Shown: one piece after another, positions 44,167-64,000 of the stretch | How the letters are laid out: the number at the start of each line of letters is the position of its first letter | Numbering within the stretch: the stretch's first letter is position 1 | From: Escherichia coli | Lineage (GTDB): Bacteria > Pseudomonadota > Gammaproteobacteria > Enterobacterales > Enterobacteriaceae | Length of the DNA: 64,000 nucleotides | Assembly (NCBI RefSeq): GCF_002854065.1 | Contig: NZ_CP024151.1 | Strand: one strand, 5' to 3' | Program-made: the position numbers and the translations under genes | The notes under the pieces: generated by a model | The model's input: only the letters and a program-made list of their open reading frames with translations | What the model was told of the DNA's origin: nothing | Database searches by the model: none

Positions 44167-44325
44167 CTACTTACCGGATTCGTAAGCCATGAAAGCCGCC
44201 ACCTCCCTGTGTCCGTCTCTGTAACGAATCTCGCACAGCGATTTTCGTGTCAGATAAGTGAATATCAACAGTGTGAGACACACGATCAACACACACCAGA
44301 CAAGGGAACTTCGTGGTAGTTTCAT
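44167..44325 (-). CDS. hok: Hok-family type I toxin (flmA/hok-like)
   Basis: Reverse translation [52 protein letters not shown], a 52-aa Hok; below the 60-aa track cut-off, found by reading the overlapping mok frame. Confidence 0.9.
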
Positions 44326-44383
44326 GGCCTTCTTCTCCTTGCGCAAAGCGCGGTAAGAGGCTATCCTGATGTGGACTAGACAT
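44171..44383 (-). CDS. mok: Mok (modulator of killing), overlapping reading frame of the hok locus
   Basis: 70-aa track ORF overlapping hok in an alternative frame and starting upstream, as in hok/mok/sok loci. Confidence 0.7.
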
Positions 44384-44400
44384 AGGGATGCCTCGTGGTG
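44325..44400 (+). ncRNA. sok: Predicted Sok-type antisense RNA
   Basis: Inferred from locus architecture (antisense to the mok translation-initiation region); no sequence-level confirmation, coordinates approximate. Confidence 0.35.
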
Positions 44401-44604
44401 GTTAATGAAAATTAACTTACTACGGGGCTATCTTCTTTCTGTCACACAACACGGCAACAAACCACCTTCACGTCATGAGGCAGAAAGCCTCAAGCGCCGG
44501 GCACATCATAGCCCATATACCTGCACGCTGACCACACTCACTTTCCCTGAAAATAATCCGCTCATTCAGACCGTTCACGGGAAATCCGTGTGATTGTTGC
44601 CGCA

Positions 44605-45324
44605 TCACGCCGCCTCCCGGAGTTTGTTCGGCACCATCCATCGCTCCATCTCACGGACGGCATGACCGGCCTCCCTTGCCGCCATACCAGCCTCTGCGAT
44701 GACCTGCCAGAATGGCATATCCTGCCACTGCCAGCGTTCCATTCCGGCCAGTGACGGAAAACGCTCGCCCCACTGCCAGAACAGGGTTTCCAGGTCATGC
44801 TCTGCCACCCGGTCACTCCAGCGTGCATGCCAGCTTCCGACTGTTTCCGGTGAATGAAATGCCAGTTCGATTTCAGCCTGAGCGACCAGCGCCTGGTACG
44901 CACGGGCTTTCTGCTCTGTCTCCCTCGCCTGCTGGCGGCTGTACTTCTGCATGACCAGCGCGGATTTATGGCGACTGCGTTCCCTGACACGAAACCGCAC
45001 CGACGGGAACAAGCGCTCTGCTGCATCACCGGGAAGGGGAAGGAGGCAGACCTCGCCCTGTGTTTCAATCAGCACATCGATGGCATACAGCCACTGAAGA
45101 CGGTTGCCGTGCAGTTCTTCTGCGGTCAGGGACGGCATGAAAAATCGCAGGTCAGACAGCGATATCCTGCGGCTTCCGTTCAGACAGCGGAAAAACGCCC
45201 CCGCATACGGATATTCAGCCAGCGTGTTACCCTGATGGCGGCGTTTTTCGGTCTCCGCCACCGCCCGCCATGCGGCCTGTTGCTCTGTGCTGAGAGGAAC
45301 CAGTGCCTGTGAACGTGCGCTCAT
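44605..45324 (-). CDS. psiA: PsiA (plasmid SOS inhibition protein A)
   Basis: 239 aa; sequence pattern and position directly downstream of psiB, as in F/R100. Confidence 0.88.
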
Positions 45325-45755
45325 GCCTGACCTCCTTCCGCCATCAGGATATGGATGATGTCGTTAACGCTGTATCCCTGCGTATCCAGTGACGCCGCCA
45401 GTGCCAGTGAATGGCTGACGGCTTCCGGTGCAAACCGCCGCTGTACCTGAACCACCGCAAACGGCTCACCACCGGCATTCACCAGAACCAGCACCCAGAC
45501 CTGGGAGACATCGCCCGGTGAACATAACGCCAGGTGAAAACGTTCGTGGGCAGGCGTGAAACGGACCTGGACGGGGAAAAAGCCGCCAAACTCGCTGCCG
45601 TACTCGCCGTTCATCGTCCAGTTGTCCGGCGCATCCAGCTCCCGCATCACGGCGTGTGTCAGCTCACGGCGTGCATCACTTCCGGCAGCCCGGATATCTT
45701 CATATTCCTGTGCGTTCATGGTATGTAATACATTCAGAGTCAGTTCAGTTTTCAT
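45321..45755 (-). CDS. psiB: PsiB (anti-SOS, RecA inhibitor)
   Basis: 144 aa from [73 protein letters not shown]...; near-identical to F PsiB. Confidence 0.93.
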
Positions 45756-45809
45756 CACGGTATCTCCCTTGCTGCCGCCCCGTCTCCGGCGGGGCGGTGT
45801 GGTTGTTCA

Positions 45810-47768: not shown

Positions 47769-47832
47769 ATATTTCTCCTTTGACCGGGGTGGTTGTATGT
47801 CTGCCGGACGTGATCCCCGTCCGGCACCTCTC

Positions 47833-48580
<748 letters not shown>

Positions 48581-48603
48581 GATGTGCCTCCTTCTGTTGA
48601 TGT

Positions 48604-49220
48604 TTTCAGCCCCCATCATCTTTTGAGTTTCGGGAGCCGCGGTTTTGACGTTTTGCGGGGACCTGCCTTTTGTTCCCTCCGGTATTCACCATCACCTTTT
48701 TGAGAACCTTCGCCGCAAGGGGCATCACTGCCACGGACGGAAACGACTGTCCGGGGGCAGACCGCAAAAGTTTTTGCCTGCTTTTGGGCAAAAAGTTTTG
48801 CGGGATGTACATTTCACCCCTGGACTGGCGGAGACGGTTGTGGCTGTCTTTGCCCCCGGCGACAGGGGCTTAAACAGGTGAATGGCACCGGACAGAACAA
48901 CGGGCAGGGACCCGCCGCAACGACGTGAAGCGCGGTTTGCGAAACGGCGTTGCCCCTTACATCCCGGCGGTCTTTTGCCGGGATGCCAGGAGCGCAGGCC
49001 ACGGCGCGACAGAGGCGGCGCGACCGGAACGGTCGCTGCAAGCCAGGGGTTTTCACGCATCGGACCGTAGCGACAGCCCGAAACCGCGCCAGCGGGTTCG
49101 GCGGAGACTGGCAGGTGCGCCAGCAGCTGCCTGTCGGAGTCGGGCCTGACGACCGGATGCCGCCAGGCAGCCGGGAGCCGAAGGTGCGCCCGGCAGACAG
49201 GACAACACTGCAGTAGTCAG
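48604..49220 (+). repeat. Dispersed leading-region repeat, copy 2 (Frpo/ssi-like), upstream of ssb
   Basis: Near-identical to copy 1; immediately 5' (in minus-sense) of ssb, the classical position of the F Frpo element. Confidence 0.6.
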
Positions 49221-49246
49221 AATCAGAGCAGCAGGAAAAAGAAGAA

Positions 49247-49294
49247 CAGTAGCAGTAGCAGTAGCAGTAGCAGTAGCAGTAGCAGTAGCAGTAG
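49247..49294. repeat. Hexanucleotide microsatellite (CAGTAG)x8
   Basis: Perfect tandem array adjacent to repeat copy 2; the homologous positions after copies 1 and 3 lack the array. Confidence 0.9.
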
Positions 49295-49472
49295 CAGGAA
49301 CAACAACATCAGTAACAGACAAATGACAGGCATGAAGAAACAGAAGCCCCCATCAGAACGTCCGCGTAATGAAAGGGGCGGCGCGTGAGCGCGGCCCCTT
49401 TCAGCACCACCGGCGCGCGTTTTTTCCCGGCGCGGGCAGACAGGCATTTATCCTCCCGCCGGCCCTGTGTCA

Positions 49473-50036
49473 TCAGGCACGCAGACGAATAATCATCGTC
49501 GGGACATCGGTATAAGCAAACGTGCCGCGCGGCAGCTCCTCGCGGACGTCAGAAAACGGTAACAGCTTCTCCTGCTGGCGTGGTCCGTTGAGACAGACGG
49601 CGACCAGCACGCCACCCGGACGCAACAGGGAAAAGGCCCGCAGGATATGCCGGATATCCTGCCCGTGGCTGAACGGCGGATTCATGATAACCCGGCTGTA
49701 ATACTGCACCGGCTGCCATTCCATGAAGTCGCCACACTGAACCCTGACACCGTTAAAATTTTCCCGCAGATACCGGACCAGCCCGCTGTTGATTTCCACC
49801 GCATCACACATGGCCCCCGGCGCGGTATCCCGAATCGCCCGCAGTATGGCCCCGGTGCCGGCAGAGGGTTCCAGAATGTGATCACGGTTGCTGATCTCCG
49901 CCAGCATCACCAGGCGATCACAGACCGGGGCAGGAGTCACAAAAAGCTGAGATTCAGCCCGGATTTCAGCAACCGGCGCGGCGTTATCCAGCCTTGCGCG
50001 CATCAGCCGGATACGTTCTCTTAACTGACTGTGCAT
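49473..50036 (-). CDS. Small class I SAM-dependent methyltransferase (N6-adenine/N4-cytosine-type motifs)
   Basis: 187 aa; motif I ILEPSAGTGAI and motif IV VIMNPPF; substrate (DNA, RNA or protein) cannot be decided from sequence. Confidence 0.7.
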   Translation of the reverse strand: MHSQLRERIRLMRARLDNAAPVAEIRAESQLFVTPAPVCDRLVMLAEISNRDHILEPSAGTGAILRAIRDTAPGAMCDAVEINSGLVRYLRENFNGVRVQCGDFMEWQPVQYYSRVIMNPPFSHGQDIRHILRAFSLLRPGGVLVAVCLNGPRQQEKLLPFSDVREELPRGTFAYTDVPTMIIRLRA

Positions 50037-50083
50037 ATCATTATCTCCGTCATCCCCCGGGGATTTTCCCGGGGGGATATACC

Positions 50084-51445
50084 TTATTTCTGTGGGATTT
50101 CCGTGATTTTCATGTCGGAGATATACACATTCACCAGGCGGAAATTATTGTCCATTGTGCGGCGGTACCGGTATGCCCCGTGGTCTTCTGCTTCTGCCAC
50201 ACTGCGCACGGCCTTACAGTCCCGGGGCAGGGCGGCCCACTGTGCCTTTGTCATTTCCCGGAAACCTTCCCCCGGATAGTTGACTACCGGCGGACGCTTC
50301 GCGGCCTGACTGGCGACGGCAGCCTCTTCTGCCGATGGTGCTTTGTAGTCCGTGATGCGATCGGGCGTCACTTTCATCGTGCCGCTGTACCCGAGAAAAC
50401 TGTAATTTGGCGTTGTGACTGAACTCACCGCCCCGTTGCTTTTGTTCACACGGATGATGGTCAGCCACTCGCCCCGGCTGAAAACCTGTCCGCCCGGCTC
50501 AAAATCCTGTGTCCGGGTAACCACGCCGCCGCTTTCGTCCAGCATGGCACGCTCATAGATCAGGCGGTTCTGATAGTGGTTAACCCAGCGTTGTTGATGC
50601 TGAATCTGCCGTTCATGACAGCGGATCGCAATTTCGCGGGCCTGCTCCGTGGTGATGATGTCATCATCCAGGGCCGACCATAACGATCGACTTCCTTCAT
50701 ACTGGCTTTTTTCTGCCGGGCGCGGATACGTATCCAGCGGGAAACAGGCGCTGATATGGTCATGACTGCTGATGAGTTTTGCCATATTCAGATCCAGCGA
50801 TTCAGCCCGCCACATCGTCAGATATTTCTGCGACTGCGCGATGGTCTTTTCAGCCTTGCGCAAATCAGCTTCGATTTTTTTGATACGACGCCAGCGAACG
50901 TCCGGACGTTCTTTATACTTCGCGTGAAGCAGTGCCGACCGCGCCCGCTCTTCCCAGTATTCCGCACGTTCAAAGAGCATCACGGCTCGTTTCATGCCGT
51001 TTTCAATACGCTGCGCATCACGACGGGCGCGGCGTTCGCTGTGATGCCCCACAAGAATGGGCTGACCGGGCGGGATCATCGCGGCCAGTCTTTCCACTTC
51101 ATCAAGTGCCTGTGCGGATTCACTGGCCCGCTTTCCGCTGTATCCGGTAAACCGCTCCGCCCGTGCTTCCTGACGTTCAGCGAGCGTGCTGTCTTCATCC
51201 TCAATCTCTCCGGCAAGTGAGAGGAGCACGTCTTCCCGGCCCGGTGTCCAGGCTGGCGCGACAAACAGCGCCTGTTTGGGTGCCCAGCGAAAACCGGCAT
51301 CATGCACTTTTTTATACGTCTCCGGGTCGAGGCGTGACGCGGCATACAGGCGCAGTTTGTTGTCATCCGGTGAGTAGGTCGCGCGGTACATCTGCACAGG
51401 GCTGGCGGCTTCCGGGGCGGTCATGGTGATTGCTGCTAATGTCAT
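50084..51445 (-). CDS. Hypothetical protein, 453 aa (leading region)
   Basis: Long ORF with coiled-coil-like basic/acidic middle region; no motif recognised by inspection; co-directional and tightly spaced with flanking genes. Confidence 0.65.
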   Translation of the reverse strand: MTLAAITMTAPEAASPVQMYRATYSPDDNKLRLYAASRLDPETYKKVHDAGFRWAPKQALFVAPAWTPGREDVLLSLAGEIEDEDSTLAERQEARAERFTGYSGKRASESAQALDEVERLAAMIPPGQPILVGHHSERRARRDAQRIENGMKRAVMLFERAEYWEERARSALLHAKYKERPDVRWRRIKKIEADLRKAEKTIAQSQKYLTMWRAESLDLNMAKLISSHDHISACFPLDTYPRPAEKSQYEGSRSLWSALDDDIITTEQAREIAIRCHERQIQHQQRWVNHYQNRLIYERAMLDESGGVVTRTQDFEPGGQVFSRGEWLTIIRVNKSNGAVSSVTTPNYSFLGYSGTMKVTPDRITDYKAPSAEEAAVASQAAKRPPVVNYPGEGFREMTKAQWAALPRDCKAVRSVAEAEDHGAYRYRRTMDNNFRLVNVYISDMKITEIPQK

Positions 51446-51496
51446 AAAATGTTCTCCTTCCGTCTGTTGCCGCCCCTCGCGGGGCGGCTCACCTCA

Positions 51497-51727
51497 TCAG
51501 TTAAAAGCGCGTTTCAGTTCGAGTGTGCGGAGCACCTGCCCGAAGGCCGTGTTTTTCATGGCGGGGATGTGTACACCACGCCCCCGGTGAAAACTCCGGG
51601 CAATGTGTCGCCCGAAGGCTTTCAGCACGGGGTCAATTTCCGGCGCGGGGATGTCTTCGCGTCTGAAACGGGGATGACGGCGGGGCTTTACAGCCGCTGC
51701 GGAAGGTGAAACAATACTTACTGTCAT
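51497..51727 (-). CDS. Hypothetical small basic protein, 76 aa
   Basis: First ORF downstream (minus-sense) of repeat copy 3; Arg/Lys-rich. Confidence 0.45.
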   Translation of the reverse strand: MTVSIVSPSAAAVKPRRHPRFRREDIPAPEIDPVLKAFGRHIARSFHRGRGVHIPAMKNTAFGQVLRTLELKRAFN

Positions 51728-51964
51728 AAATGAAACTCCTTATGACAAATTGGTTAACAATGCCGTCAAAATTGGTTGTGCAATTCTTACGGCGTGGATT
51801 AAGCAGGTCCCTGACCTGCTTTTTTCATATCTGCGTCTGACGTTCTACGGTGTTTTCCTCCTTCTGTTCCTGCGTTCTCATTACCTGCCAGCCGGATGAC
51901 TGACAGAACAAATAAATGCATATTGCCGGAGCCTGAAATAAATCCTGATTTTTAAAGAACATCA

Positions 51965-52575
51965 CCCGTTGAGTTTCGGGAGCCGCGGTTTTGACGTTTC
52001 GCGGGAACCTGCTGCTGTATTCCCTGTGGTATGAACTTCACCCGTTTGAGAACCTTCGCCGCAAGGGGCATCACTGCCACGGCCTGACGCACCTGTCCTG
52101 GGCAGAACGCAAAATTTTTTACCGGGTTTTGGGTAAAAAATTTTGTGGGCTGTTCATTTACCCTGGACAGTCAGTGCGGCAGGTTGTGGCTGTATCAGCC
52201 CCCGGCGACAGGGACTCATACGGGTGTGTGGCACCGGCAGGCAATGAGCAGGGACCCGCCGCAACGACGGAGAGCGCGTGCGCGAAACGGCGTTGCCCCT
52301 TACATCCCGGCGGCCTTTTGCCGGGATGCCGGGAGCGCAGGCCACGGCGCGACAAGGGTGGCGCGACCGGAACGGTCGCTGCAAGCCCGGGGTTTTCACG
52401 CATCGGACCGTAGCGACAGCCCGAAACCGCGCCAGCGGGTTCGGCGGAGACTGGCGGGTGCGCCAGCAGCTGCCTGTCGGAGTCGGGCCTGACGACCGGA
52501 TGCCGCCAGGCAGCCGGGAGCCGAAGGTGCGCCCGGCAGACAGAACAACACTGCAGTAGTCAGAATCAGAGCAGC
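51965..52575 (+). repeat. Dispersed leading-region repeat, copy 3 (Frpo/ssi-like), 5' half diverged
   Basis: 3' about 330 bp near-identical to copies 1 and 2 (CCCGCCGCAACGAC...GCAGTAGTCAGAATCAGAGCAG); 5' half recognisably related but diverged. Confidence 0.6.
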
Positions 52576-52764
52576 AGATAAAGGAACAACAACATCAGGA
52601 ACAGTTCCATAACATAAGAAAGAAACACTCCTGAGTCAGACACATCACAGACGGGAAGGGTAACGGGCGACGCGCCAGCGTGGCCCGCTTCCCTTCCGGC
52701 AGGCGTCAGCCTGCCAGGGGTTTTCGCGCGGACTGACAGGCGGCCTCCACCGCCTGCCCCTGTA

Positions 52765-52956
52765 TCACCTGTTTCTGCTACCCTGTAAGATGTAGTGACC
52801 GCCCAGGAAAACCGCCTGCTGATTCGCCACAAAATCGCAGATTTCATCAACAATCTGCGCGGTGGTGAGCGGTTTCTGCCCCATTTCACGACGCCGCGCA
52901 TTAATCACGGCCCTGTAATTACGCAGAATTTCGCGGGTTTCTGTGCTGATATTCAT
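52765..52956 (-). CDS. Hypothetical small protein, 63 aa
   Basis: Start overlaps the stop of the upstream 144-aa gene by 4 nt (translational coupling). Confidence 0.4.
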   Translation of the reverse strand: MNISTETREILRNYRAVINARRREMGQKPLTTAQIVDEICDFVANQQAVFLGGHYILQGSRNR

Positions 52957-53387
52957 GACATCGTCTCCCCGTCCAGCGCCTGTAACACAACGTCCATTGC
53001 TTCGCGTTCCTCCCTGACGAATGCGTCACCGTCGCCCCCGTTCTCACTCCCGACGGCATACAGGCGCTTCATTTCACTGCCTGCCAGCGCCATCACTTTT
53101 TCCAGCATCACCGCCGGGACTGTCACCTGACGGCTGGCGCGCTTTTCTTCCATCAGTTCATGAACAACGCCGTGAACAACGCCGTGAACAACGCTGACAT
53201 CCGCACCATATTCAAAGGCATCGTCCAGCCGCTGCATGACGGTTTCCAGCTCATCGTCTGTCAGACTCCAGTCCTGGGCTATGTGACGCACATCCCCACG
53301 GGTCAGCACCACGGCAAAAACGCATTCACTGTCCGGCACGTCTGTATCCAGCACTTCGCGGATAATTTCTTTAACAGTACAGTACAT
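52953..53387 (-). CDS. Hypothetical acidic protein, 144 aa (paralogue A)
   Basis: Shares ends and central motif (RQVTVPA) with the 55103..55537 product; SD AAGGAG before ATG 53387; contains an in-frame 12-bp x3 tandem repeat. Confidence 0.65.
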   Translation of the reverse strand: MYCTVKEIIREVLDTDVPDSECVFAVVLTRGDVRHIAQDWSLTDDELETVMQRLDDAFEYGADVSVVHGVVHGVVHELMEEKRASRQVTVPAVMLEKVMALAGSEMKRLYAVGSENGGDGDAFVREEREAMDVVLQALDGETMS

Positions 53388-53433
53388 GTTCTCGTCTCCT
53401 TTACAGGGGCGGCATTGCCGCCCCGTCCGTTAA

Positions 53434-53859
53434 TCAGTCCAGAGCCGCGTAAATCGCGTTGCATTCGGGGTGAAATTCGATGTGACGCCACAACTGCGCA
53501 TCGCGCATCCGGTAAAGCTGGGTCAGTCCTGCATCCCCGCTGTCGTGGTACAGCCACAACTGGCGGTTAATCACAAGGGAGGTCAGGATGATGCCTGCGG
53601 CATCAGCACTCACGGTACGGTCAAACCAGTTTGCACCGTTCACCATGTGGAAACGGTCGCCATCCGGCATCATGTAACCGCCACCGTCCGGCAGGCGGAT
53701 GAAGTGCCAGAAGCCTCCCTGATATTCCGGCATCATTTTTTGCGCCAGCGCGTACACATACGCCTCGGCATACAGAAAATCGTTGCCAAACAGATACGGC
53801 AGAAAGGAGAGACGGTCGCACTCTTCAACATTCAGAGTGACAGGTTTCGCATATTGCAT
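53434..53859 (-). CDS. klcA: KlcA/ArdB-family antirestriction protein
   Basis: 141 aa; ...[21 protein letters not shown]...[18 protein letters not shown]...[27 protein letters not shown]...[12 protein letters not shown], the conserved KlcA/ArdB pattern as I remember it. Confidence 0.85.
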
Positions 53860-54275
53860 GATGTTTTCCTCCGTTGTTCACATATTCCGCGACACCGGGC
53901 GGTGCCGTGCCTCCATAAAAGCCGGGCGAACAGGCGGGGATGCAGGGGCGCAAGGGAAGCCGCAGCCTGACGCACACGGCTGACGGGAGTTGCAGGGTGA
54001 GACCGCGAAATCTGAGCGGGTGAACGACCGGAAAATCACGGCAGACGGGAAGGAGGGACCGGGTGACCGCAGCGGCGAAGCGTACCCTTGCATCAACGCC
54101 AGCCCGGCTAAGATGGAGGCACGGCACAGCCCGCACACGACGCTGAGGCCACATAACTGAAAAACCACAAGGCCATGCCCTGCATGGCCGGGTAAAGCGG
54201 AGCCGGCGGCGACTTCCTTTGTGCTCTGTCCGGGGACCGGCAGGAAAAAGGCGGGGATTTACCCCGCCAGTGTCA

Positions 54276-55103
54276 TCATTTCCGGATTTTTGCCAGGGCA
54301 TCCGCCATGCTGCGGATTTCGGTCCGGGCTTCCCGGACCACCTCCCGCAGAACACCACGGTCAAACCAGCGGCGGGGCGGTTCATCCGGTATACGCAGCA
54401 CATCGCAGGCCAGCCCACTGGACAGGATATGCTCAATACACTCACTGACCAGATACATTTCCACCGACGAAAAACGTGCTCCCCGGTTCACGATGGCATC
54501 GAGCACCACGGGCAGGTTTTCGTCATCTTCATCGAGCCAGCAGGGGTGATCGCTTTCCTTCACGACCAGGCGAAAGCGGCGCGTCTGGCGGGTCAGCAAC
54601 GTCTGACCGGTGGTGGTCAGCGCCGCACGGATACGCCGCGCATCTTCTGCCACCTGGTAACAGATGCTTCGTACCGCATCGTGCACCGCATCAAGAACAG
54701 CCTTGATTTCGTCTTCGGTCAGCCATTCTCCGGCATACGGGAAAGACACCTGCGTTCCGTCTGCCGGAAGTACCGGCAGCGACTGCCACTGACTGCCGGA
54801 CAGTACCAGTTCCGCCCCGGTTCCGGTCAGTCTCTGAATGGCGGAGGCCAGGAGCGGCGGCAGTACGCCGCCGTGACGGTTGATAAGTAACGTCGCCAGC
54901 CGGGGCGCATCCAGCCGCACGTAAATGCTGATCCAGCCCGGATAGTTCGGATTTCGCTGGTCAACATCCGTCTCTTCCGGCCAGTCCTGCGCCAGCAGCA
55001 GGTTACGGGCGTGACGACAAATCAGTGCGTTCAGCGTGCTGTTTTCGTTCATGATTAAGCGTTCTCCCTGTATCGCCGCCCGCAGGGCAGGCGGCGATAA
55101 CAT
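54276..55103 (-). CDS. Hypothetical protein, about 258-275 aa (leading region)
   Basis: Track ORF; alternative start at 55052 ([10 protein letters not shown]...). Stop/start abuts the upstream paralogue-B gene. Confidence 0.6.
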
Positions 55104-55537
55104 CAGTTGTTTTCGTGTGTGTTGTTTTTCAGCAGGGTGCGGGCCTGATTAACCACCGCCTGACGGCGGGTAACGCATTCCGGGACGGCGAGGCCGTTAT
55201 CACGGGCGGCCCACTCACGTTTCCACAGTGCCTGTTCAGCGGTCTGAATCAGGGACGCCAGCAGTTCAGCAGGGACGGTCACCTGGCGGTTTTCGCTCAC
55301 GTTGCTGATAATCTCCATCACCGCGGCGGAAGAAATACCGGATTCAGTCCGCTGGTCTTCCGGGATGTCCTCCATGCGCGCCAGGACGGTCCTGATTTCA
55401 TGATCGGTCAGAGAAATTTCCATACCGTCAGCCAGTGCCTGAATCTCTTCCGGGGACCAGATAACCAGCATCAGCGGCGCGTCTCCCGGATACTTTGCTG
55501 CCAGCTCCCGGCATAGCGTTTCGCATGTTCCGTACAT
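55103..55537 (-). CDS. Hypothetical acidic protein, 144 aa (paralogue B)
   Basis: Paralogous to 52953..53387 (same length, MY.T..E..RE N-terminus, ...LTD.E..TV..R..D..., RQVTVPA core); near-identical RBS context (AAGGAGACGAGAA-ATG). Confidence 0.65.
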
Positions 55538-55550
55538 TCTCGTCTCCTTC

Positions 55551-55772
55551 TCAATCTTTGAAGCAGGAATCCAGTTCCAGAATTTCGGTATACGCCTCCA
55601 TAAACAGGCGATTGGCGCGATACAGCGTCTGGCGTGTCAGGCGTTCAACAAGCACATCGGAATCAAAGCGACAGCGATGCTCCATATCGTTCAGCCTAGC
55701 CCGAAGGTCACACATGGTGTTGGCCACCTCCGCCACGTCGGCGCGAAGTTTTTCGTGTCCGGCATAGTTCAT
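55551..55772 (-). CDS. Hypothetical small protein, 73 aa
   Basis: ORF immediately downstream of the methyltransferase gene (adjacent stop/start). Confidence 0.45.
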   Translation of the reverse strand: MNYAGHEKLRADVAEVANTMCDLRARLNDMEHRCRFDSDVLVERLTRQTLYRANRLFMEAYTEILELDSCFKD

Positions 55773-56456
55773 TTACGCAGCCTCCGGTTCAAACCAGTTA
55801 TCATTCGCGGCCCCCTGCTGCATGGCCCGTTGCACGGCGGCCAGTCGTTGCTGTCCGGCACGGTGATACTGTTCAAGCAGCTCGATACCGATATACCGGC
55901 GTCCGGACTGGAGGGCGGCCACGCAGGTTGAGCCGCTGCCTGCAAACGGGTCCAGCACAATCGCGTTCGGATGTGTGAAGCTCTCAATCAGTGGTTGCAG
56001 GCTGGTAACGGGCTTTTCCGTCGGGTGATGGCGGTTGCCCGAATATTTCCAGCCCAGCACGTCGGGTAATGGCTTCGGAGGCAGCGCCGGACGGCCTTTT
56101 GCCAGGATATAGGCGCATTCGTGACGGTACGCGACATACGCAGATTTGGATGTGTAGCTTTTGGTGAACACAAGGTGCCCTACAACGCTGAATCCGGCGC
56201 GTTTCCAGGCTGCCATAAAGCGGTCAATACGGTTCCAGCCATAGAAACTCACCATCAGCGCATCTTTTTTTAGTACGCGGTACATCTCATTACTGGCAGG
56301 TTGCAGCCAGTCATCGTTAACGTCACCGGCAATGGTGCGCCCGGAACGGTCACGAAAACCAACGAGATATGGTGGGTCGGTTAAGATGAAATCAATGGCG
56401 TTATCAGGAATCGTGGCCATAACACGCACGCAGTCACCCAGGATAAAACGGGACAT
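55773..56456 (-). CDS. Orphan DNA methyltransferase, beta class (N6-adenine or N4-cytosine; YhdJ-like)
   Basis: 227 aa; motif IV DPPY near the N-terminus (..DFILTDPPYLVGF..), HPTEKP, and motif I DPFAGSGST near the C-terminus, the circularly permuted beta-class order; no adjacent restriction endonuclease candidate. Confidence 0.85.
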   Translation of the reverse strand: MSRFILGDCVRVMATIPDNAIDFILTDPPYLVGFRDRSGRTIAGDVNDDWLQPASNEMYRVLKKDALMVSFYGWNRIDRFMAAWKRAGFSVVGHLVFTKSYTSKSAYVAYRHECAYILAKGRPALPPKPLPDVLGWKYSGNRHHPTEKPVTSLQPLIESFTHPNAIVLDPFAGSGSTCVAALQSGRRYIGIELLEQYHRAGQQRLAAVQRAMQQGAANDNWFEPEAA

Positions 56457-56841
56457 AACAGCACTCCTCCTCTTACAGAGGGCACCGGGAGGGCGCCCCT
56501 GTGGCGCCCGTTCTCCGCTGCCTGTGGGCTGTTCACCGCGTCCGGTAACGGGTCAGGCCGACCGTGGAATACCGCAGCCGTCGTCTTTCTGACGGCGAGG
56601 ATATGCCGCGAAAGCGGCTTGAAGGGCATTCATCAGAAAAGGGCGACAGGCTGGCGTACACTGTCACCGACGCCAGCCAGGAGCGGTAAAAGCGCCCGTC
56701 CCGTGCCCGGCCGGACACGGGACACTGACCACAGGCAGCGTTCCTGCCGCGCCGCGTCAGCCGGCGCAGTAAAAAGAGGAGCACGGCGACATCCTTTGTC
56801 GGAAAAGAAACGGGCGGTTGCCCGCCCGTCTCCGTCATACT

Positions 56842-57768
56842 TCATCCGCCATAATGCGCCACCTTGTCGACTATCCACGCAGGTCCGGTGACTTCCGGCA
56901 GCTCATCGTCATCTGTCGGGGAAGACCATTCAAGTTCCCCCCACAGCACATCAACGAGCTCTCCACGCTCATACAACTGCCAGCCACAGAAATTGCAGCC
57001 TTGTTCGGCGTACCAGTGCTCCAGCGTGCAGCTGAAACGGCGGCTTAATTCTGCAACAACGTCGCTTTCCGGCTGACACCACGGCGTGTCGAAATCCACC
57101 TGAATGAAGTTTTCTCCCTGACTGCTGATATTCAGGTCATACCCACAAGGCCACTTCACGCCATACCGTTCGGTATACCAGTGATATGCAGAAGGAACAC
57201 CGTTCAGAACACCACCGTTAAAGCCATTCACTTCAACATCCAGGCGGGTCGGCAGAACCGTCAGCAGGTCAAACGGCATGGTTTTTTCCGGCAGCACGTT
57301 GTCACACAGACGGTTCCACCACACCGATACATCCTCGTTACCCCAGATGTCACACCAGTCACCTCTTTTTGCGGTGAAATGCACAGTGATGATTTCCCTG
57401 ACATCATCCGGTAATCCTTCCCAGCGACGCTGTCCAGTACCGCTCTGCAGCCAGAGTTTATGCAGCATCAGGCAGTTTTGCTCATCCAGCAGTACACCGT
57501 CCTGCAGGTATGTCAGCCAGCGGGTGAACGCGATATTCTCCGGCGATACAACGCCACGCCCGGCAGCCGTCAGTCCGGGGCATGGTTCAAACCGCACATC
57601 TTCAGTGGTCTGCAGAAGTCCGGCACTTCCGGCCAGAAACAGCTGAATACCTTCATTTGTGGCGCGGCGATAAAGCGGTGTGACTGCACCGCTGGCCAGT
57701 CGTTTAATCTCAGCAATCTGTGCCGGTTCACCAGAAAAATGCATACGATTTGAGCACCAGTTTGGCAT
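56842..57768 (-). CDS. Conserved leading-region protein (DUF1281-like), unknown function
   Basis: 309 aa from MPNWCSNRMHFSGEPAQIAEIKRL...; SD AGGAGA before ATG 57768; Trp/Cys-rich. Family name from memory. Confidence 0.7.
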   Translation of the reverse strand: MPNWCSNRMHFSGEPAQIAEIKRLASGAVTPLYRRATNEGIQLFLAGSAGLLQTTEDVRFEPCPGLTAAGRGVVSPENIAFTRWLTYLQDGVLLDEQNCLMLHKLWLQSGTGQRRWEGLPDDVREIITVHFTAKRGDWCDIWGNEDVSVWWNRLCDNVLPEKTMPFDLLTVLPTRLDVEVNGFNGGVLNGVPSAYHWYTERYGVKWPCGYDLNISSQGENFIQVDFDTPWCQPESDVVAELSRRFSCTLEHWYAEQGCNFCGWQLYERGELVDVLWGELEWSSPTDDDELPEVTGPAWIVDKVAHYGG

Positions 57769-58122
57769 GGGAATTCTCCTCTCACATGCGGCCTCTATCA
57801 GGCCGTGCCGCACCTGTAACCGGGCGACCGCATACGAATGCAGGTGCGGCCCCGAAGCCGCAGCGCGTGGAGGAGGAACGACGAAACGTGACCGGGTGAG
57901 GAGGCCGGCGACAGCGACACACTTGCATCGGATGCAGCCCGGTTAACGTGCCGGCACGGCCTGGGTAACCAGGTATTTTATTCACAGAACCGTGCGCAAA
58001 ATGCTGTGGATAAGCTGGACACAGCAGTCCACAGCAGGCATACAGCCACACCCTCAGAGAATTGAGCGTTTTTTAGTCACAATAATGACATTTGACTGTG
58101 TGTGGATTCAGTTATTAGAATG

Positions 58123-58138
58123 CTGTATATACATACAG
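58123..58138 (+). promoter_or_regulatory. LexA (SOS) box overlapping the promoter of the dinI/umuDC-like operon
   Basis: CTGTATATACATACAG (CTGT-N8-ACAG) immediately downstream of TTGACT (58092..58097) and TAGAAT (58116..58121) with 18-bp spacing. Confidence 0.8.
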
Positions 58139-58161
58139 CAATAGAAAAGGGAGATGAGAAC

Positions 58162-58410
58162 ATGATCCGCATTGAAATTCTTTTCGACCGCCAGAGCACA
58201 AAAAACCTCAAATCAGGCACACTTCAGGCGCTACAGAATGAAATCGAACAACGTCTGAAACCACACTCCCCGGAAATCTGGCTGCGTATAGACCAGGGCA
58301 GCGCCCCGTCTGTATCTGTCACAGGAGCCCGCAACGACAAGGATAAAGAACGTATCATGTCTCTGCTGGAAGAAATCTGGCAGGACGACAGCTGGCTGCC
58401 TGCAGCATGA
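58162..58410 (+). CDS. DinI-family protein (ImpC-like)
   Basis: 82 aa from MIRIEILFDRQ...; resembles DinI; SD AAGGGAG before ATG 58162; first gene of the SOS-box operon. Confidence 0.75.
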   Translation: MIRIEILFDRQSTKNLKSGTLQALQNEIEQRLKPHSPEIWLRIDQGSAPSVSVTGARNDKDKERIMSLLEEIWQDDSWLPAA

Positions 58411-58844
58411 GTACCGTTTATCACCGTCCGGCTGACCCTTCAGGCGATGACAGTTACGTGCGACCGTTGTTTGCCGATCGTTGCCAGGCCGGTTTTCCTT
58501 CGCCTGCCACTGATTATGCTGAGCAGGAACTGGATCTGAACAGCTATTGCATCAGCAGACCTGCAGCCACCTTCTTTCTGCGCGCCAGCGGTGAATCGAT
58601 GAACCAGGCTGGCGTGCAGAATGGTGATCTGCTGGTAGTGGACAGGGCCGAGAAACCACAACACGGGGACATCGTTATCGCTGAGATCGACGGTGAGTTC
58701 ACCGTCAAACGACTGCTGTTGCGCCCACGCCCGGCACTGGAGCCGGTTTCAGACAGCCCGGAATTTCGCACACTGTATCCGGAAAACATCTGTATTTTTG
58801 GTGTTGTCACTCACGTGATACACAGGACGCGGGAGTTACGCTGA
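58407..58844 (+). CDS. UmuD/ImpA/MucA-family protein (LexA-like S24 peptidase, Pol V accessory subunit)
   Basis: 145 aa; C-terminal peptidase-S24 region with ...RASGESMNQAGVQNGDLLVVDRAEKPQHGDIVIAEIDGEFTVKRL...; overlaps dinI-like stop. Confidence 0.88.
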   Translation: MSTVYHRPADPSGDDSYVRPLFADRCQAGFPSPATDYAEQELDLNSYCISRPAATFFLRASGESMNQAGVQNGDLLVVDRAEKPQHGDIVIAEIDGEFTVKRLLLRPRPALEPVSDSPEFRTLYPENICIFGVVTHVIHRTRELR

Positions 58845-60114
58845 TGTTTGCACTGGCTGATATCAACAGTTTCTACGCCTCATGTGAAAAAGTTTTCCGC
58901 CCGGACCTTCGCAACGAACCGGTCATCGTACTCAGCAATAACGATGGCTGTGTGATCGCGCGCAGCCGGAGGCAAAAGCCCTTGGCATCAGAATGGGGCA
59001 GCCCTGGTTTCAGGTGAGACAGATGCGCCTGGAGAAGAAAATACATGTATTTTCCAGCAATTATGCGCTGTACCACAGCATGAGCCAACGGGTCATGGCT
59101 GTTCTGGAGTCGCTTTCTCCCGCAGTTGAGCCCTACTCAATTGATGAAATGTTCATTGATTTGCGGGGGATAAATCATTGCATCTCTCCGGAGGTTTTTG
59201 GTCATCAGCTCAGGGAACAGGTAAAGAGCTGGACAGGACTCACCATGGGGGTGGGCATTGCGCCTACAAAAACGCTGGCTAAAAGTGCACAGTGGGCAAC
59301 AAAGCAATGGCCACAGTTTTCCGGTGTGGTCGCGCTGGAGGCAGAAAACCGTAATCGGATCTTGAAGCTACTGGGGCTGCAGCCAGTTGGTGAGGTCTGG
59401 GGAGTAGGACGCAGACTGACGGAAAAGCTGAATGCGCTGGGTATTAACACAGCACTGCAGCTGGCGCAGGCTAACACGGCATTCATCCGGAAAAACTTCA
59501 GCGTCATTCTTGAGCGTACGGTACGCGAACTCAACGGCGAGTCCTGCATATCCCTGGAAGAAGCACCACCGGCAAAACAGCAGATTGTCTGTAGTCGCAG
59601 TTTTGGTGAACGAATCACAGACAAAGATGCCATGCACCAGGCTGTTGTTCAGTATGCAGAGCGGGCCGCAGAGAAACTACGTGGGGAGCGTCAGTATTGC
59701 CGGCAGGTGACGACATTTGTACGGACATCCCCCTTTGCAGTAAAAGAACCCTGTTACAGCAATGCCGCTGTGGAAAAGCTTCCATTACCCACACAGGACA
59801 GCCGGGACATTATTGCCGCAGCATGCAGAGCGTTAAACCATGTCTGGCGTGAAGGGTACCGCTATATGAAGGCAGGAGTCATGCTGGCTGATTTCACACC
59901 ATCGGGTATAGCGCAGCCGGGATTATTTGATGAGATCCAGCCCCGTAAAAACAGCGAAAAGTTAATGAAAACACTCGATGAACTGAACCAGTCTGGAAAA
60001 GGGAAAGTGTGGTTTGCGGGGCGAGGAACCGCCCCTGAATGGCAAATGAAACGGGAAATGCTCTCGCCTTCGTATACAACACAATGGACTGAGATCCCCA
60101 TTGCTTCATTCTGA
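58844..60114 (+). pseudogene. UmuC/ImpB/MucB-family Y-family DNA polymerase gene interrupted by a -1 frameshift near 58960
   Basis: N-terminus MFALADINSFYASCEKVFRPDLRNEPVIVLSNNDGCVIAR is in one frame (58844 onward, stops at 59017); the rest (AQPEAKALGIRMGQPWFQ... to ...TQWTEIPIASF) continues in another frame from about 58960 (track ORF 58993..60114). Confidence 0.7.
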
Positions 60115-60118
60115 TATA

Positions 60119-60547
60119 TCAGAATAATTTTTGCATTTTAAGGCGCACATCATTCATTGCCTCCTGCACCGAATCAGTAGCAGAAGGAGGCATTTTTTCA
60201 GCAGATTGCAAAGCACCGAGTTCAGTCAACACAGCTCTGATATCGGCCTGAGAAGGCTTCCATCCTGTCGTCTGACTGAGTAAGGTTACAACCTGATCTG
60301 CTGAAAACTCCTCGCTCAAAATGGCAGTCAGCAATACAGGCAGGCGAGGATCAAGTTGGTGTAACGCCATTCCAGAAATAAATGCATTCCGGAACAGCTC
60401 ACCACGCTCAGAACGCGGAACGGACTCTATCGCTTCCAAAGCTTGAAAGTCTGCAGCTTTTTCCGGATGCAGATAAAGTGTGAATTTTTTCCTTTTCCGT
60501 TCATCGTCCACAATATTACTCCTCTTTGAAAGCCGCGATAGCTTCAA
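60119..60547 (-). CDS. parR: ParR-like centromere-binding protein (StbB; type II partition)
   Basis: 142-aa ORF downstream of the actin-like ATPase; central region NAFISGMALHQLDPRLPVLLTAILSEEFSADQVVTLL aligns with R1 ParR as recalled. Confidence 0.7.
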   Translation of the reverse strand: MKLSRLSKRSNIVDDERKRKKFTLYLHPEKAADFQALEAIESVPRSERGELFRNAFISGMALHQLDPRLPVLLTAILSEEFSADQVVTLLSQTTGWKPSQADIRAVLTELGALQSAEKMPPSATDSVQEAMNDVRLKMQKLF

Positions 60548-61487
60548 CCAGTGCTGTCTGTGGCGACTCCATCATCACTACTTTTTGCCCAAGATGGTGC
60601 CATGCCGTTTTTATCGAATCATAGATCAACGGGGCCCCACCACCGACAACATAAACACGATTCACATGATGAAAATCACCGAGCTCATTGACTACTTGCT
60701 CCCCCAGACTGGCAATAGCCCCCTCAATGGTATTAAGGACCAGATCAGTTTTTGTTTCGTCATTTATAACCTGCCGAACAAAGTCCGGGTCATTACGACG
60801 TTTAATCAATTCATCTGCAACGAGGAAACTGGTATCACTGGATGCCATGCGCAATGCACTCATTGCAGCTTTCGTAACTGAAGACACACCAATGCCAGAA
60901 TTACCATGAATGGCACTTACAGAGTCAAATTGACCAACGATAACACCAACATCAAGCGTAGTGCCGCCAATATCAACTACCAGCGATTTTTCGAACTGAC
61001 CAACTTTATCCATGACCAGACGAGAAAACACAGCTGGCAATGATTCAGGCATCACATCAACGTGTTCAATGGTGAAAACATCGCCTTTATTAAGACGAAT
61101 CGGCCTCATTAAATTCTCAATTTTACGCTGAATGTTGAGTTCATTTTTTTGACACTCTTTCGTGTAGAACTCACTGATAGGCAAAGTCACAGTCAATGAT
61201 ACAGGCTGAGGCGCTAATCCACTATTCAGTAAAGCGTGATGCACAGCTAACAGGTTAACATCCGTATATTGATACTCAATATGAGTCGTAAGAATAGATT
61301 GGTTGCTAACTTCATCATACGTGTATTTTTTACCATCCAGTTCATAGTTAAATGTCTGGCGAATCCCTAACCCGTCAACCTTCCATCCATGACGAAATGA
61401 GTTTTGCGACAACGACTTACAGATTTTCCCATTGTCATTCCATGCCAACTTGATTGTTGTTGAACCATCATCGCAGTATACGTTCAT
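60516..61487 (-). CDS. parM: ParM-like actin-type partition ATPase (StbA)
   Basis: 323 aa; MNVYCDDGSTTIKLAW... N-terminal phosphate-1 motif, ...VDIGGTTLDV... and ...VYVVGGGA... actin-fold motifs. Confidence 0.88.
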   Translation of the reverse strand: MNVYCDDGSTTIKLAWNDNGKICKSLSQNSFRHGWKVDGLGIRQTFNYELDGKKYTYDEVSNQSILTTHIEYQYTDVNLLAVHHALLNSGLAPQPVSLTVTLPISEFYTKECQKNELNIQRKIENLMRPIRLNKGDVFTIEHVDVMPESLPAVFSRLVMDKVGQFEKSLVVDIGGTTLDVGVIVGQFDSVSAIHGNSGIGVSSVTKAAMSALRMASSDTSFLVADELIKRRNDPDFVRQVINDETKTDLVLNTIEGAIASLGEQVVNELGDFHHVNRVYVVGGGAPLIYDSIKTAWHHLGQKVVMMESPQTALVEAIAAFKEE

Positions 61488-61715
61488 CTATAGCCCCTTA
61501 AATACTCAATCTGAGTAAATCACTGTTTCTGGTTGCAAGGTAATACTCAATTTGAGCACTATCATAGTTATGAAATCACAAAACACAAGTAATATTTATT
61601 ACATCATATGACATACTTCATATTTCATACTTCATAAATATGAATGCATGTTGACACATCAGGTTACCGTGTCAAAATATCATCATACTTCACACATCAC
61701 ATTTATGAGGTTGCA
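61488..61715. promoter_or_regulatory. Divergent promoter/centromere region between the parMR-like and parAB-like operons
   Basis: AT-rich intergenic region with short direct repeats (CATACTTCATATTTCATACTTCATAAATATGAA; TGAAATCACA motifs) between divergently transcribed partition operons. Confidence 0.55.
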
Positions 61716-62360
61716 ATGATTACTGTAGTTGGTGGGAACAAAGGTGGTTCAGGGAAAACTACCATTGCATCAAACCTGGCTATTGCTCTCGCAAATAAAG
61801 GAAGGGAAGTCTGCCTGTTAAACGGAGATCTACAACGAACAGCCGCAAAACATCATGCGGAACGAGAAGCTGCAGGACTGTTACCAGCAATAACCCTTGT
61901 TGAGAAATTTGATAACCTGACACAAACACTACAGGCTCTGAATGAAAAGTTCGATGATGTAATAGTGGATGTCGCAGGAAGAAACTCAAAGGAATTCATA
62001 ACGAGTGGAGTTGTCGCACATCAAATAATTGCGCCACTACAGTGTTCTCAACCAGATCTGGATACTCTTACAGAACTAGAACAACAGATAGACGCAATGC
62101 GTAACCTTAACCCGGAACTTAAGGTTTATTGTTTACAAAGTATGGCAACAACCAATCCGGTTTTGAGGGGAAATGAGAGAAAAGAATTCCTTGAATATCT
62201 TGAAGAATTCCCAACAATTCAAGTCCTGGATTCAGTTATTTGTTTCAGAAAAGTCTATCGCGATTGCATGAGCAACGGCACCGGTGTAGTAGAAACGAAC
62301 AATACAGCAGCCAGAGCAGAAATTGAACATTTAATGAATGAGGTATTTGGCCCATGGTGA
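61716..62360 (+). CDS. parA: ParA-family partition ATPase (small type Ib)
   Basis: 214 aa from MITVVGGNKGGSGKTTIASNLA (deviant Walker A); SD GAGG before ATG 61716. Confidence 0.88.
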   Translation: MITVVGGNKGGSGKTTIASNLAIALANKGREVCLLNGDLQRTAAKHHAEREAAGLLPAITLVEKFDNLTQTLQALNEKFDDVIVDVAGRNSKEFITSGVVAHQIIAPLQCSQPDLDTLTELEQQIDAMRNLNPELKVYCLQSMATTNPVLRGNERKEFLEYLEEFPTIQVLDSVICFRKVYRDCMSNGTGVVETNNTAARAEIEHLMNEVFGPW

Positions 62361-62629
62361 AGAAACCCAGCCAGCAAGCATTAAACAGAGCTGCAGTTAC
62401 GGTAGAACAAGCAGAGGCTCTGGCTCAGCGCCTTGCGGATAAACCATACGGCGCGCCGGAAAAACTCGAACCAGAAAAACAATGTCGGACGACAATCTCT
62501 CTTGGTGAAAGCATGCTTGTCACAATAGAAGATCTGGCATTGAGGAATAAACGCAATGGTAAAGATCCAAAAAATGTAAGTGCCATCGTCAGAGTAGCCC
62601 TTGAGCAATACTTAAAAACACTAACGTAA
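62354..62629 (+). CDS. parB: Small partition adaptor / centromere-binding protein (ParG/ParB-like, predicted RHH C-terminus)
   Basis: 91 aa immediately downstream of and overlapping parA; C-terminal ...VSAIVRVALEQYLK RHH-like. Confidence 0.65.
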   Translation: MVKKPSQQALNRAAVTVEQAEALAQRLADKPYGAPEKLEPEKQCRTTISLGESMLVTIEDLALRNKRNGKDPKNVSAIVRVALEQYLKTLT

Positions 62630-62639
62630 TAATCAAGAA

Positions 62640-62700
62640 GTTATTACTTATGAAATCACACTTATGAAATCACACTTGTGAATTCACACTGTTTAAGCAC
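62640..62700. repeat. Direct repeats downstream of the parAB-like operon (candidate second centromere site)
   Basis: CTTATGAAATCACACTTATGAAATCACACTTGTGAATTCACACT: three copies of a roughly 12-bp unit; the same TGAAATCACA motif occurs in the 61488..61715 region. Confidence 0.5.
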
Positions 62701-62780
62701 CCTTGCATACAAGAGATCACATATTGCAGTGGTCTCTTCTTTTATAGAATAAATCACAATTCATAATTATGATTTGTGAC

Positions 62781-63572
62781 TTATGCGTGTCTGTTTTTCA
62801 GCATTGTGACAGCATCGGACTCAGGCATCGAAAACTGCACCCGGTGCCGTGCAGCCACATCCAGCGCAAACACCTTCGTGTACACCTCTGTCGAACTAAT
62901 CGACTTGTGCCCCATCAGGCTCTGCAGCACCTTCAGCGGAATACCAGCATACAGCATATGCATCGCGTAGGAATGGCGGAAAGTATGTGGGGTAACCGGA
63001 ACAGAGAACGTCACGCCGTCGGCCGCAGCGGCCTCTACAGCTTCATTCAGCCAGGTGCGAACTGTGCGGTCGGTGATTCCCCAGATGCGCGCCTTCTCCA
63101 TTCTTCCGGTTCGTTTGTTTCTGCGCTCCAGTGGGATTTTCAGCGTGGCCACCATCATCTGCAGTTGGCTGACGTATTGTGTATCGGACAGGGGAACCAG
63201 GCGATGCACCTGACTGCCAGCAGGGACACGGCCTGCCGTTCTGGTCGCTTTTTCAGTCCGTTGTTTGAGCGTGGCCAGCTGTACGAACGGATATGGCGGC
63301 GCCAGAGAAAAATCTCCCCGCGTCAGCGCCAGCACTTCGTTTATACGTGCGCCCGTGTTCCACAGGGTGGCCAGCAACATTTTGCGGTGCAGATCCGGTA
63401 CATAGTGGAGCAGGGCGCTGATCTCCGGCGCCAACAGATATTTTGGTAATTCGTCCTGCACAAGTGCCATCTGACGTAGTGCCAGCGCAGCCGGGTAATC
63501 AATGGCAACAGGTAATGTTGCCGGAGGCGTTAAAAAAGAACCTGGCAGGGAAAGCAATTGTGGGCCACTCAT
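62781..63572 (-). CDS. resD: Tyrosine site-specific recombinase (ResD-like multimer resolvase)
   Basis: 263 aa; C-terminal catalytic signature ...HTFRHSYAMHMLYAGIPLKVLQSLMGHKSISSTEVYTKV (R..H-x-x-R..Y). Confidence 0.85.
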   Translation of the reverse strand: MSGPQLLSLPGSFLTPPATLPVAIDYPAALALRQMALVQDELPKYLLAPEISALLHYVPDLHRKMLLATLWNTGARINEVLALTRGDFSLAPPYPFVQLATLKQRTEKATRTAGRVPAGSQVHRLVPLSDTQYVSQLQMMVATLKIPLERRNKRTGRMEKARIWGITDRTVRTWLNEAVEAAAADGVTFSVPVTPHTFRHSYAMHMLYAGIPLKVLQSLMGHKSISSTEVYTKVFALDVAARHRVQFSMPESDAVTMLKNRHA

Positions 63573-64000
63573 GATGTCCCCTTTATGAAATCCTCAATCT
63601 CTTGCTCGGTCTTTTTAGACTTCTTTACCATTTCGTACTCCTTTTGGAGTGTTTTACCTCTGGCTTTCAACAATACCAACCTCGTTGGCGATAGTGTATC
63701 GGAAAGGCCGTGCAGAGGGAGGCCACATAACATTCTCAGTTCTCGTGATAACCGCAGTGCTTTTACTCCCAACATAGCTGCGTTTTTATGCAAACTATAT
63801 TCACCCGCTCCACCATAAGGAGTATCTTCAACAAACACATTATCTACACACACGACAGCTTCGTAGCTGAGAACAGAGAGTTCGCTGAGCCTATACATCA
63901 GGCCAGAAGGAAGGGAGCGCCAGTTACCAGATACCGGGGAATAATCGATTTCCGGTAATAAGAACTCAGCTTCTCCTCTGCCATCCTGATCGTGCTCCAC
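63569..64000 (-). CDS. Hypothetical protein, C-terminal part (gene starts beyond the right window edge)
   Basis: Open frame running to the window end, stop overlapping the resD-like start; no recognisable motif. Confidence 0.4.
   Translation of the reverse strand: MEHDQDGRGEAEFLLPEIDYSPVSGNWRSLPSGLMYRLSELSVLSYEAVVCVDNVFVEDTPYGGAGEYSLHKNAAMLGVKALRLSRELRMLCGLPLHGLSDTLSPTRLVLLKARGKTLQKEYEMVKKSKKTEQEIEDFIKGTS

Follow-up and report, generated by a model that had tools for sequence, protein, structure and literature searches.

The window, a 64-kb stretch of Escherichia coli DNA, carries on its + strand an operon of a DinI-like, a UmuD-like and a UmuC-like gene, in that order and with overlapping stop and start codons, as in impCAB (Table 1). 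The locus is very probably impCAB, a plasmid-borne, LexA-repressed homologue of dinI and umuDC, with an impB pseudogene. Its first two products are nearly identical to the reference Imp proteins of ColIb-P9 (ImpA 100%, ImpC 98%), and its DNA is 98.9% identical to that of pN581 (LC567078.1), where the genes are annotated impC, impA and impB. An intact Y-family polymerase of about 424 aa, which belongs to the definition of impCAB, is missing from this copy. The original prediction, an SOS-controlled dinI/umuD-like operon at 58092-58844, had all of its elements at the right coordinates, but its end is merely the stop codon of impA, whereas the operon runs on to 60114 through the frameshifted impB; the impCAB identity and a second, weak LexA-like site at 58094-58113 are additions to it.

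Table 1. The imp operon, its control region and context features of the plasmid leading region (positions within the window)
Feature	Position	Strand	Remarks
traM	40414-40797	-	context
F-type oriT nic-site sequence GCGTGGGGTGTGGTGCTTT	41110-41128	+	exact match; 0.02 expected by chance
psiA	44605-45324	-	context
psiB, SOS inhibitor	45321-45758	-	NCBIfam PsiB equivalog, 277 bits (cut-off 100)
ssb	48128-48619	-	context
DUF1281 gene	56842-57813	-	last leading-region gene before imp
-35 hexamer TTGACT, imp promoter	58092-58097	+	promoter scan; invariant in ColIb-P9, R64, pN581 and two IncF plasmids
Second, weak LexA-like site GACTGTGTGTGGATTCAGTT (CTG-N10-CAG)	58094-58113	.	inside -35/spacer; putative
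-10 hexamer TAGAAT	58116-58121	+	18-nt spacer to -35; TAAAAT in one relative
Main LexA operator, 20-mer TGCTGTATATACATACAGCA	58121-58140	.	core CTGTATATACATACAG at 58123-58138
Shine-Dalgarno-like GGGAG	58149-58153	+	8 nt 5' of impC ATG; read in CAATAGAAAAGGGAGATGAGAACATG
impC, DinI-like, 82 aa	58162-58410	+	Pfam DinI, E=1.1e-16
impA, UmuD-like self-cleaving S24 peptidase (predicted), 145 aa	58407-58844	+	start overlaps impC stop (ATGA)
impB, UmuC-like Y-family polymerase pseudogene	58844-60114	+	start overlaps impA stop (TGATG)
impB 1-bp deletion, GCAGCCCGG to GCAGCCGG	58964-58967	+	impB nt 123

In a promoter scan of positions 57700-60400, TTGACT-18-TAGAAT (58092-58121) was the top sigma70-like site, with 10/12 positions matched. 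The main operator next to it has the palindrome and AT-rich spacer of a LexA site: its core CTGTATATACATACAG agrees with the palindromic consensus CTGT(AT)4ACAG at 15/16 positions, and the complete 20-mer TGCTGTATATACATACAGCA agrees with the E. coli LexA consensus TACTGTATATATATACAGTA at 17/20, i.e., within three mismatches. The core begins 2 nt past the -10 hexamer, with one intervening nucleotide (G), and the 20-mer shares the last base of the -10 and spans the expected transcription start, the start site being predicted. The weak site also overlaps the promoter, at the -35 and spacer, and its reverse complement is AACTGAATCCACACACAGTC, identical to the second impCAB site of plasmid pTF2. 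The promoter scan, the uniqueness of the 20-mer in the window and the Pfam matches to DinI and Peptidase_S24 thus bear out the prediction of an SOS box and promoter ahead of dinI-like and umuD-like genes, and the predicted overlap of box and promoter holds in that the 20-mer takes in the last -10 base and covers the expected start.

Copies of imp from IncI1, IncI-gamma/K and IncF plasmids have almost the same promoter and operator. We considered reading this conservation of the LexA box as a sign of selection and dropped the idea: the retrievable imp promoters are all about 98% identical, and because imp copies have diverged by only about 2%, conservation of the box is uninformative on selection. 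The intergenic region at the imp promoter folds unusually well as single-stranded DNA. An Frpo repeat beside the promoter was rejected, the three large leading-region repeats being located elsewhere, and an Rfam search of 52-64 kb returned no described RNA element at the imp locus.

Independent evidence on LexA control comes from the IncI1 plasmid pTF2, whose impCAB operator TACTGTATATACATACAGCA shares its 16-nt core with that of the window and is assigned a heterology index of 1.60 (PMC12211044), while its second impCAB site, AACTGAATCCACACACAGTC, has an index of 13.49 (PMC12211044, Table 1 therein). In a LexA-defective, SOS-constitutive strain carrying pTF2, ImpC rose 21-fold, ImpA 9-fold and ImpB 2-fold, and ImpC and ImpA were the most SOS-induced of the pTF2 proteins (PMC12211044). 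The sole difference between the two operator 20-mers is G58122, at flank position 2, where pTF2 has A; the index of 1.60 is that of the pTF2 site, and G58122 puts the window 20-mer one step farther from consensus. This allele is rare, occurring in 11 of 1,536 promoter-bearing plasmids. LexA control of imp has thus been demonstrated by experiment for the pTF2 promoter, with a main 20-mer that differs by one flank base from the window's, and by analogy would apply to the window promoter.

The contrary reading, in which the palindrome matches by chance or is a vestige and LexA does not control the promoter, draws on the minimal motif CTGT-N8-ACAG, which occurs once in the window against 0.81 expected per window, appears at least once in 55/100 shuffled sequences and by itself has no significance; moreover, binding at the exact window allele, with G58122, is a prediction. 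The complete site behaves differently, since only one sequence within three mismatches of TACTGTATATATATACAGTA, namely TGCTGTATATACATACAGCA, occurs in the entire window and none in 100 shuffles, its core CTGTATATACATACAG is placed 1 nt past the -10, and in pTF2 the identical 16-nt core governs an SOS-dependent rise of ImpA and ImpC by 9- to 21-fold. We regard a chance or vestigial palindrome as very improbable, and take the site to be a LexA operator in what follows.

The first gene product, ImpC, belongs to the DinI family by its score against Pfam PF06183 (61.4 bits, cut-off 24.2) and matches the DinI structure PDB 1GHH (E=2.4e-5). It is 98% identical to ImpC of ColIb-P9, is annotated by name in LC567078.1 and shares 35% identity with E. 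coli DinI, falling well below the threshold of the DinI equivalog NCBIfam NF007893 (38.1 bits, cut-off 111). By these profile scores ImpC is DinI-like and not an orthologue of DinI. The C-terminal acidic helix of DinI is partially conserved in ImpC, and the earlier suggestion that the DinI-like protein alone could modulate RecA filaments would follow from the 35% identity to DinI. We found no test of ImpC action on RecA or on ImpA cleavage in the accessible literature, and a single paper in the open literature on ImpC with DinI and RecA.

ImpA has the features of UmuD and of peptidase family S24, namely a Ser-Lys dyad and an Ala/Cys-Gly cleavage site. It matches Peptidase_S24 in Pfam (E=3.3e-24), the NCBIfam model of the Pol V autoproteolytic subunit (143 bits, cut-off 110) and the UmuD chain 8GMT_B (E=3e-36). 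In the alignment, Ala28-Gly29 stands opposite the UmuD cleavage site Cys24-Gly25, and Ser64 (in GESM) and Lys101 (in TVKR) stand opposite the catalytic Ser60 and Lys97. The protein is identical to ImpA of ColIb-P9, its gene is intact in the window, as is impC, and from the aligned residues it looks competent for RecA-stimulated self-cleavage.

The third gene is broken. Two open reading frames, 58844-59017 (57 aa) and 58993-60114 (373 aa), divide the Pfam IMS domain into an N-terminal and a C-terminal portion, and the lesion is evident from comparison with the closest intact relative, p1046-3E9: over 2.3 kb there are four differences, among them a CCC run that is one C shorter in the window. 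When one C is restored, the reading frame encodes a 423-aa protein that is identical to ImpB of p1046-3E9 and matches the UmuC model with 791 bits. In the window sequence as it stands, the catalytic Asp6 and the steric-gate Tyr11 belong to the 57-aa product, whereas the SIDE motif (Asp101/Glu102) is encoded in a separate reading frame. Because the frameshift parts these residues, polymerase activity of the window ImpB should be lost, and loss of UV protection and SOS mutagenesis by this operon is likewise expected from the impB frameshift. The 1-bp deletion that splits the UmuC-like gene, and the label "frameshifted" given to the same impB allele by NCBI's PGAP, agree with the original view that the module is probably non-functional for Pol V. 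A programmed frameshift in impB can probably be dismissed, as few copies carry the deletion, most being intact, and the sequence offers no sign of a slippery site.

A different possibility is that the deletion is a homopolymer sequencing or assembly error, and that the operon is fully functional and supplies a working translesion polymerase, ImpA'2B. Dropping one C of CCC is a typical error of this class, and adding one C yields a protein identical to that of an intact relative. The deletion is also found on more than one promoter background, sharing only four records with G58122, a distribution that recurrent artefacts could explain. Nevertheless, the same allele is present in 9 of 2,302 plasmids in PLSDB and in 7 of 1,668 RefSeq records of complete E. 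coli genomes, from varied laboratories, hosts and countries; four PLSDB records, among the matches listed, match the window at 100% identity across 2.3 kb; a run of three bases is short for systematic homopolymer errors; and different, clearly inherited impB frameshifts exist in other lineages. We consider a sequencing error improbable and take the deletion as real, given its recurrence in assemblies made by separate laboratories. Co-inheritance of G58122 and the impB deletion, which might have pointed to weaker repression as a force selecting for loss of impB, was rejected on the counts of the two alleles (11 records with the promoter allele, 9 with the deletion and 4 with both).

Decay of impB is not confined to the lineage of the window. 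Independent 1-bp deletions lie at nt 123 (window lineage), nt 887 (pAA of O104:H4) and nt 946 (pO113 and pS21EC_B). The window lineage, pO113 and pS21EC_B retain intact impC and impA, whereas the O104:H4 pAA copy lacks impC and has a truncated impA. Among 60 matches sampled at even steps, no CDS is annotated for 5 of the 34 full-length impB copies, which are probably pseudogenes, and about 1,310 of 3,593 records contain just part of impB. Previous work places impCAB in the leading transfer region, describes it as toxic on overexpression and gives a median dN/dS of 0.001 for impC and impA vs. 0.11 for impB (PMC10286972), whereas deletion of impC, impA, impB or the complete impCAB from pTF2 left SOS levels and conjugation unchanged (PMC12211044).

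These observations raise the possibility that ImpC and ImpA are retained for a polymerase-independent task, such as damping or timing of the RecA filament or a checkpoint, with impB loss tolerated or favored. The independent frameshifts at nt 123, 887 and 946, the intact impC and impA of the window lineage, pO113 and pS21EC_B, and the roughly 5 in 34 unannotated full-length impB copies would all be consistent with such a task, as would the difference in dN/dS (0.001 vs. 0.11) together with the toxicity of overexpressed impCAB (PMC10286972) and the position of ImpC and ImpA at the top of the SOS-induced pTF2 proteins (PMC12211044). However, impB makes up 65% of the coding length, such that three of three lesions would fall in it by chance with a probability of about 0.27, and the frameshifts are recent, as judged from near-identical flanks, leaving little time for upstream decay. 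Furthermore, O104:H4 pAA has lost impC and truncated impA, some 1,300 plasmids hold impB fragments only, and the pTF2 imp deletions changed neither SOS nor conjugation (PMC12211044). Retention for a polymerase-independent task is in our judgment unlikely, and that ImpC-ImpA is kept after impB loss specifically as a modulator of RecA filaments or a DNA-damage checkpoint is a long shot; if true, such a role would explain the repeated decay of impB beside intact impC and impA, for which far stronger purifying selection is reported. The decay of impB is a modest lead and not a discovery, and we continue with the reading of the locus as a LexA-repressed impCAB whose polymerase gene has been lost.

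The plasmid that carries the operon is F-like, as indicated by CopA, FinP, the traJ 5' UTR, two sok RNAs, traM and the exact F nic-site sequence, and over 45956-64000 it shares 99.96% identity with p886Rt_hybrid, an IncFIB/IncFIC plasmid by typing. Between 44605 (psiA) and 57813 (DUF1281 gene) every leading-region gene is encoded on the - strand, but imp is encoded on the +, so that the predicted placement of the operon on the strand opposite to the leading region is correct; partition genes follow from 60119. It is established that GCGTGGGGTGTGGTGCTTT represents the nicked strand of the F oriT. Since the nic sequence lies on the + strand, this strand, by the established polarity of F transfer, is the transferred one and the template for the - strand leading genes; imp is encoded on the transferred strand itself and therefore cannot be transcribed until the complement has been made. 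The leading-region island has the operon at its distal end, in an orientation unsuited to transcription from the T-strand. Its association with psiB was overstated in one respect, as psiB belongs to the same leading region but lies 12.4 kb from the LexA box and is not next to it. Umu-like operons have been described at the boundary of leading-region islands, oriented against T-strand transcription, and co-occurring with islands that contain psiB (Samuel et al., 2024, PMC11541004). Our literature search found no paper that treats the leading region, psiB and impB together.

A course of events compatible with these features can be proposed. In an established host, LexA bound at 58121-58140, and possibly at the weak site 58094-58113, would shut off the promoter (58092-58121), the evidence being sequence for both elements and, for repression, the behavior of the pTF2 promoter with its one flank-base difference. 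DNA damage would activate RecA and lead to self-cleavage of LexA, releasing a single transcript from which ImpC, ImpA and ImpB would be translated via the stop/start overlaps. Judging from the UmuD alignment and the known imp phenotype, ImpA would cleave itself at Ala28-Gly29, using Ser64/Lys101, to yield ImpA', which together with intact ImpB would make up a translesion polymerase of the Pol V type. The window copy, in which the impB lesion is present, would provide ImpC and ImpA only, with the polymerase absent, and ImpC, by analogy with DinI, probably tunes the RecA-dependent processing of ImpA.

During conjugative entry, psiB and ssb could be transcribed from the incoming single-stranded DNA and imp could not. 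PsiB would thus act first, LexA would stay intact, and imp would then become double-stranded in an already repressed state, a timing that agrees with published work on leading regions (PMC11541004). The original prediction pointed out that the plasmid encodes both an SOS-induced module and an SOS suppressor; most likely, PsiB and imp act in sequence, at different times, and not in opposition.

The operon is widespread, with more than 2,000 plasmids carrying it at 95% identity or higher. A 2.3-kb operon query matched at least 5,000 plasmid records, at least 2,063 of them with 80% query coverage or more, and the impB segment is present in 1,513 of 5,426 complete E. coli genomes. In the window, the correct labels are impC, impA and an impB pseudogene, under a LexA operator, and this plasmid is unlikely to supply its host with error-prone polymerase activity. 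Knowing which imp copies are intact matters because widespread Pol V-type operons on plasmids could raise rates of stress-induced mutation in the hosts of resistance plasmids.

Like imp, the mucAB (pKM101/R46) and samAB operons are plasmid-borne, LexA-regulated analogues of umuDC. At the DNA level, matches of the window operon to other plasmid umuD genes are confined to the umuD-like core, at about 70% identity, and none of these matches includes a DinI-like gene. The closest known system is impCAB of IncI1 plasmids, which was reportedly characterized by Lodwick, Owen and Strike in 1990 (TP110, ColIb-P9, R64), and which Runyen-Janecky and colleagues are said to have found in 1999 on the Shigella virulence plasmid as well. 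The window operon resembles that of ColIb-P9 (NC_002122.1) and R64 (NC_005014.1) in gene order, in the sizes of impC and impA (82 and 145 aa), in the stop/start overlaps, promoter and LexA box, and also in its neighbors, a DUF1281 gene upstream and partition genes downstream. It differs in its replicon, which is F-like where ColIb-P9, R64 and TP110 are IncI1; in one operator-flank substitution, G58122; and in the 1-bp deletion in impB, whose repaired product has 423 aa vs. 424 aa in ColIb-P9, with divergence from the latter after about 60061. With the chromosomal umuDC and dinI of E. coli it shares a LexA box over the promoter, the UmuD cleavage site and Ser/Lys dyad, a UmuC-like protein that, once repaired, fits the UmuC model, and membership of ImpC in the DinI fold family, whereas its dinI-like gene is joined into the operon, upstream of the umuD-like gene. 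Finally, as in the islands of Samuel et al. (2024), imp lies at the far boundary of an island with psiB, psiA, ssb, methylases and anti-restriction genes, and we see no material difference between those islands and that of the window. The feature and its genomic arrangement are already known, and the window is an ordinary instance.

Independently of the 1-bp deletion at nt 123 that inactivates impB, the UmuC-like gene of impCAB, in the window, related plasmids carry other 1-bp deletions in the same gene, at nt 887 in the O104:H4 pAA plasmid and at nt 946 in both pO113 and pS21EC_B, and thus impB pseudogenisation is recurrent. The genes for the DinI-like ImpC and the UmuD-like ImpA are intact in pO113 and pS21EC_B. 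Moreover, in pS21EC_B (L009) the LexA box is cut by a rearrangement breakpoint (L009 540-600). Upstream of impC, ATACATACAG (the right half) is all that survives of the box, along with the ribosome-binding site, and a ClbS/DfsB gene adjoins it; this imp copy is without its native promoter and operator.

The window's own deletion allele (58964-58967) is rare, occurring in nine plasmids, and G58122, a rare base at the flank of the main LexA operator, occurs in 11. The two are found together in four records only, which implies recombination or recurrent mutation inside the very young lineage of the window. The impB segment as such is widespread: a 61-mer query (58936-58996) matched 1,513 of the 5,426 complete E. 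coli genomes searched, and 24 of its 1,682 matches were chromosomal instead of plasmid-borne.

A weak second LexA-like site, GACTGTGTGTGGATTCAGTT, absent from the original prediction, lies at the imp promoter, and its reverse complement is an exact copy of the site of HI (heterology index) 13.49 listed for impCAB of the IncI1 plasmid pTF2 (PMC12211044).

The intergenic region that separates the imp promoter from the DUF1281 gene (57814-58090) is predicted to form an exceptionally stable single-stranded fold on the transferred (+) strand (-61.4 kcal/mol; z = -4.6; none of 200 shuffles equally good). This region may provide the island's first gene with a promoter or a priming signal in ssDNA, and it is unrelated in copy to the three large leading-region repeats. 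Those repeats, composed of two 300-nt families with 97-98% identity (67% in one arm), stand upstream, on the minus strand, of blocks of genes, psiB/psiA and ssb among them, and are probably Frpo/ssi-type single-strand promoter regions. Two sok-type antitoxin RNAs mark hok/sok-like loci.

Features of the leading region, replicon and imp surroundings (window coordinates)
Feature	Coordinates	Strand	Setting
Direct repeat, ~640 nt, three copies	43266-43902, 48602-49238, 51948-52581		leading region
AS-pc01 (Rfam)	51722-51824		close to the ~640-nt repeats
sok-type antitoxin RNA	8602-8760	-	near CopA replicon (7734-7822)
sok-type antitoxin RNA	44323-44499	-	leading region, directly beside psiA
Weak second LexA-like site (sequence match)	58094-58113		-35/spacer of imp promoter
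Partition genes	60119-61487	-	downstream of imp

At the other end of the operon, the module junction where imp meets the partition genes downstream is marked by a collapse of identity to ColIb-P9 from about the last 50 nt of impB onward (~60061-60250); the ImpB C-termini differ, with 423 aa for the window's frame-repaired protein versus 424 aa in ColIb-P9.
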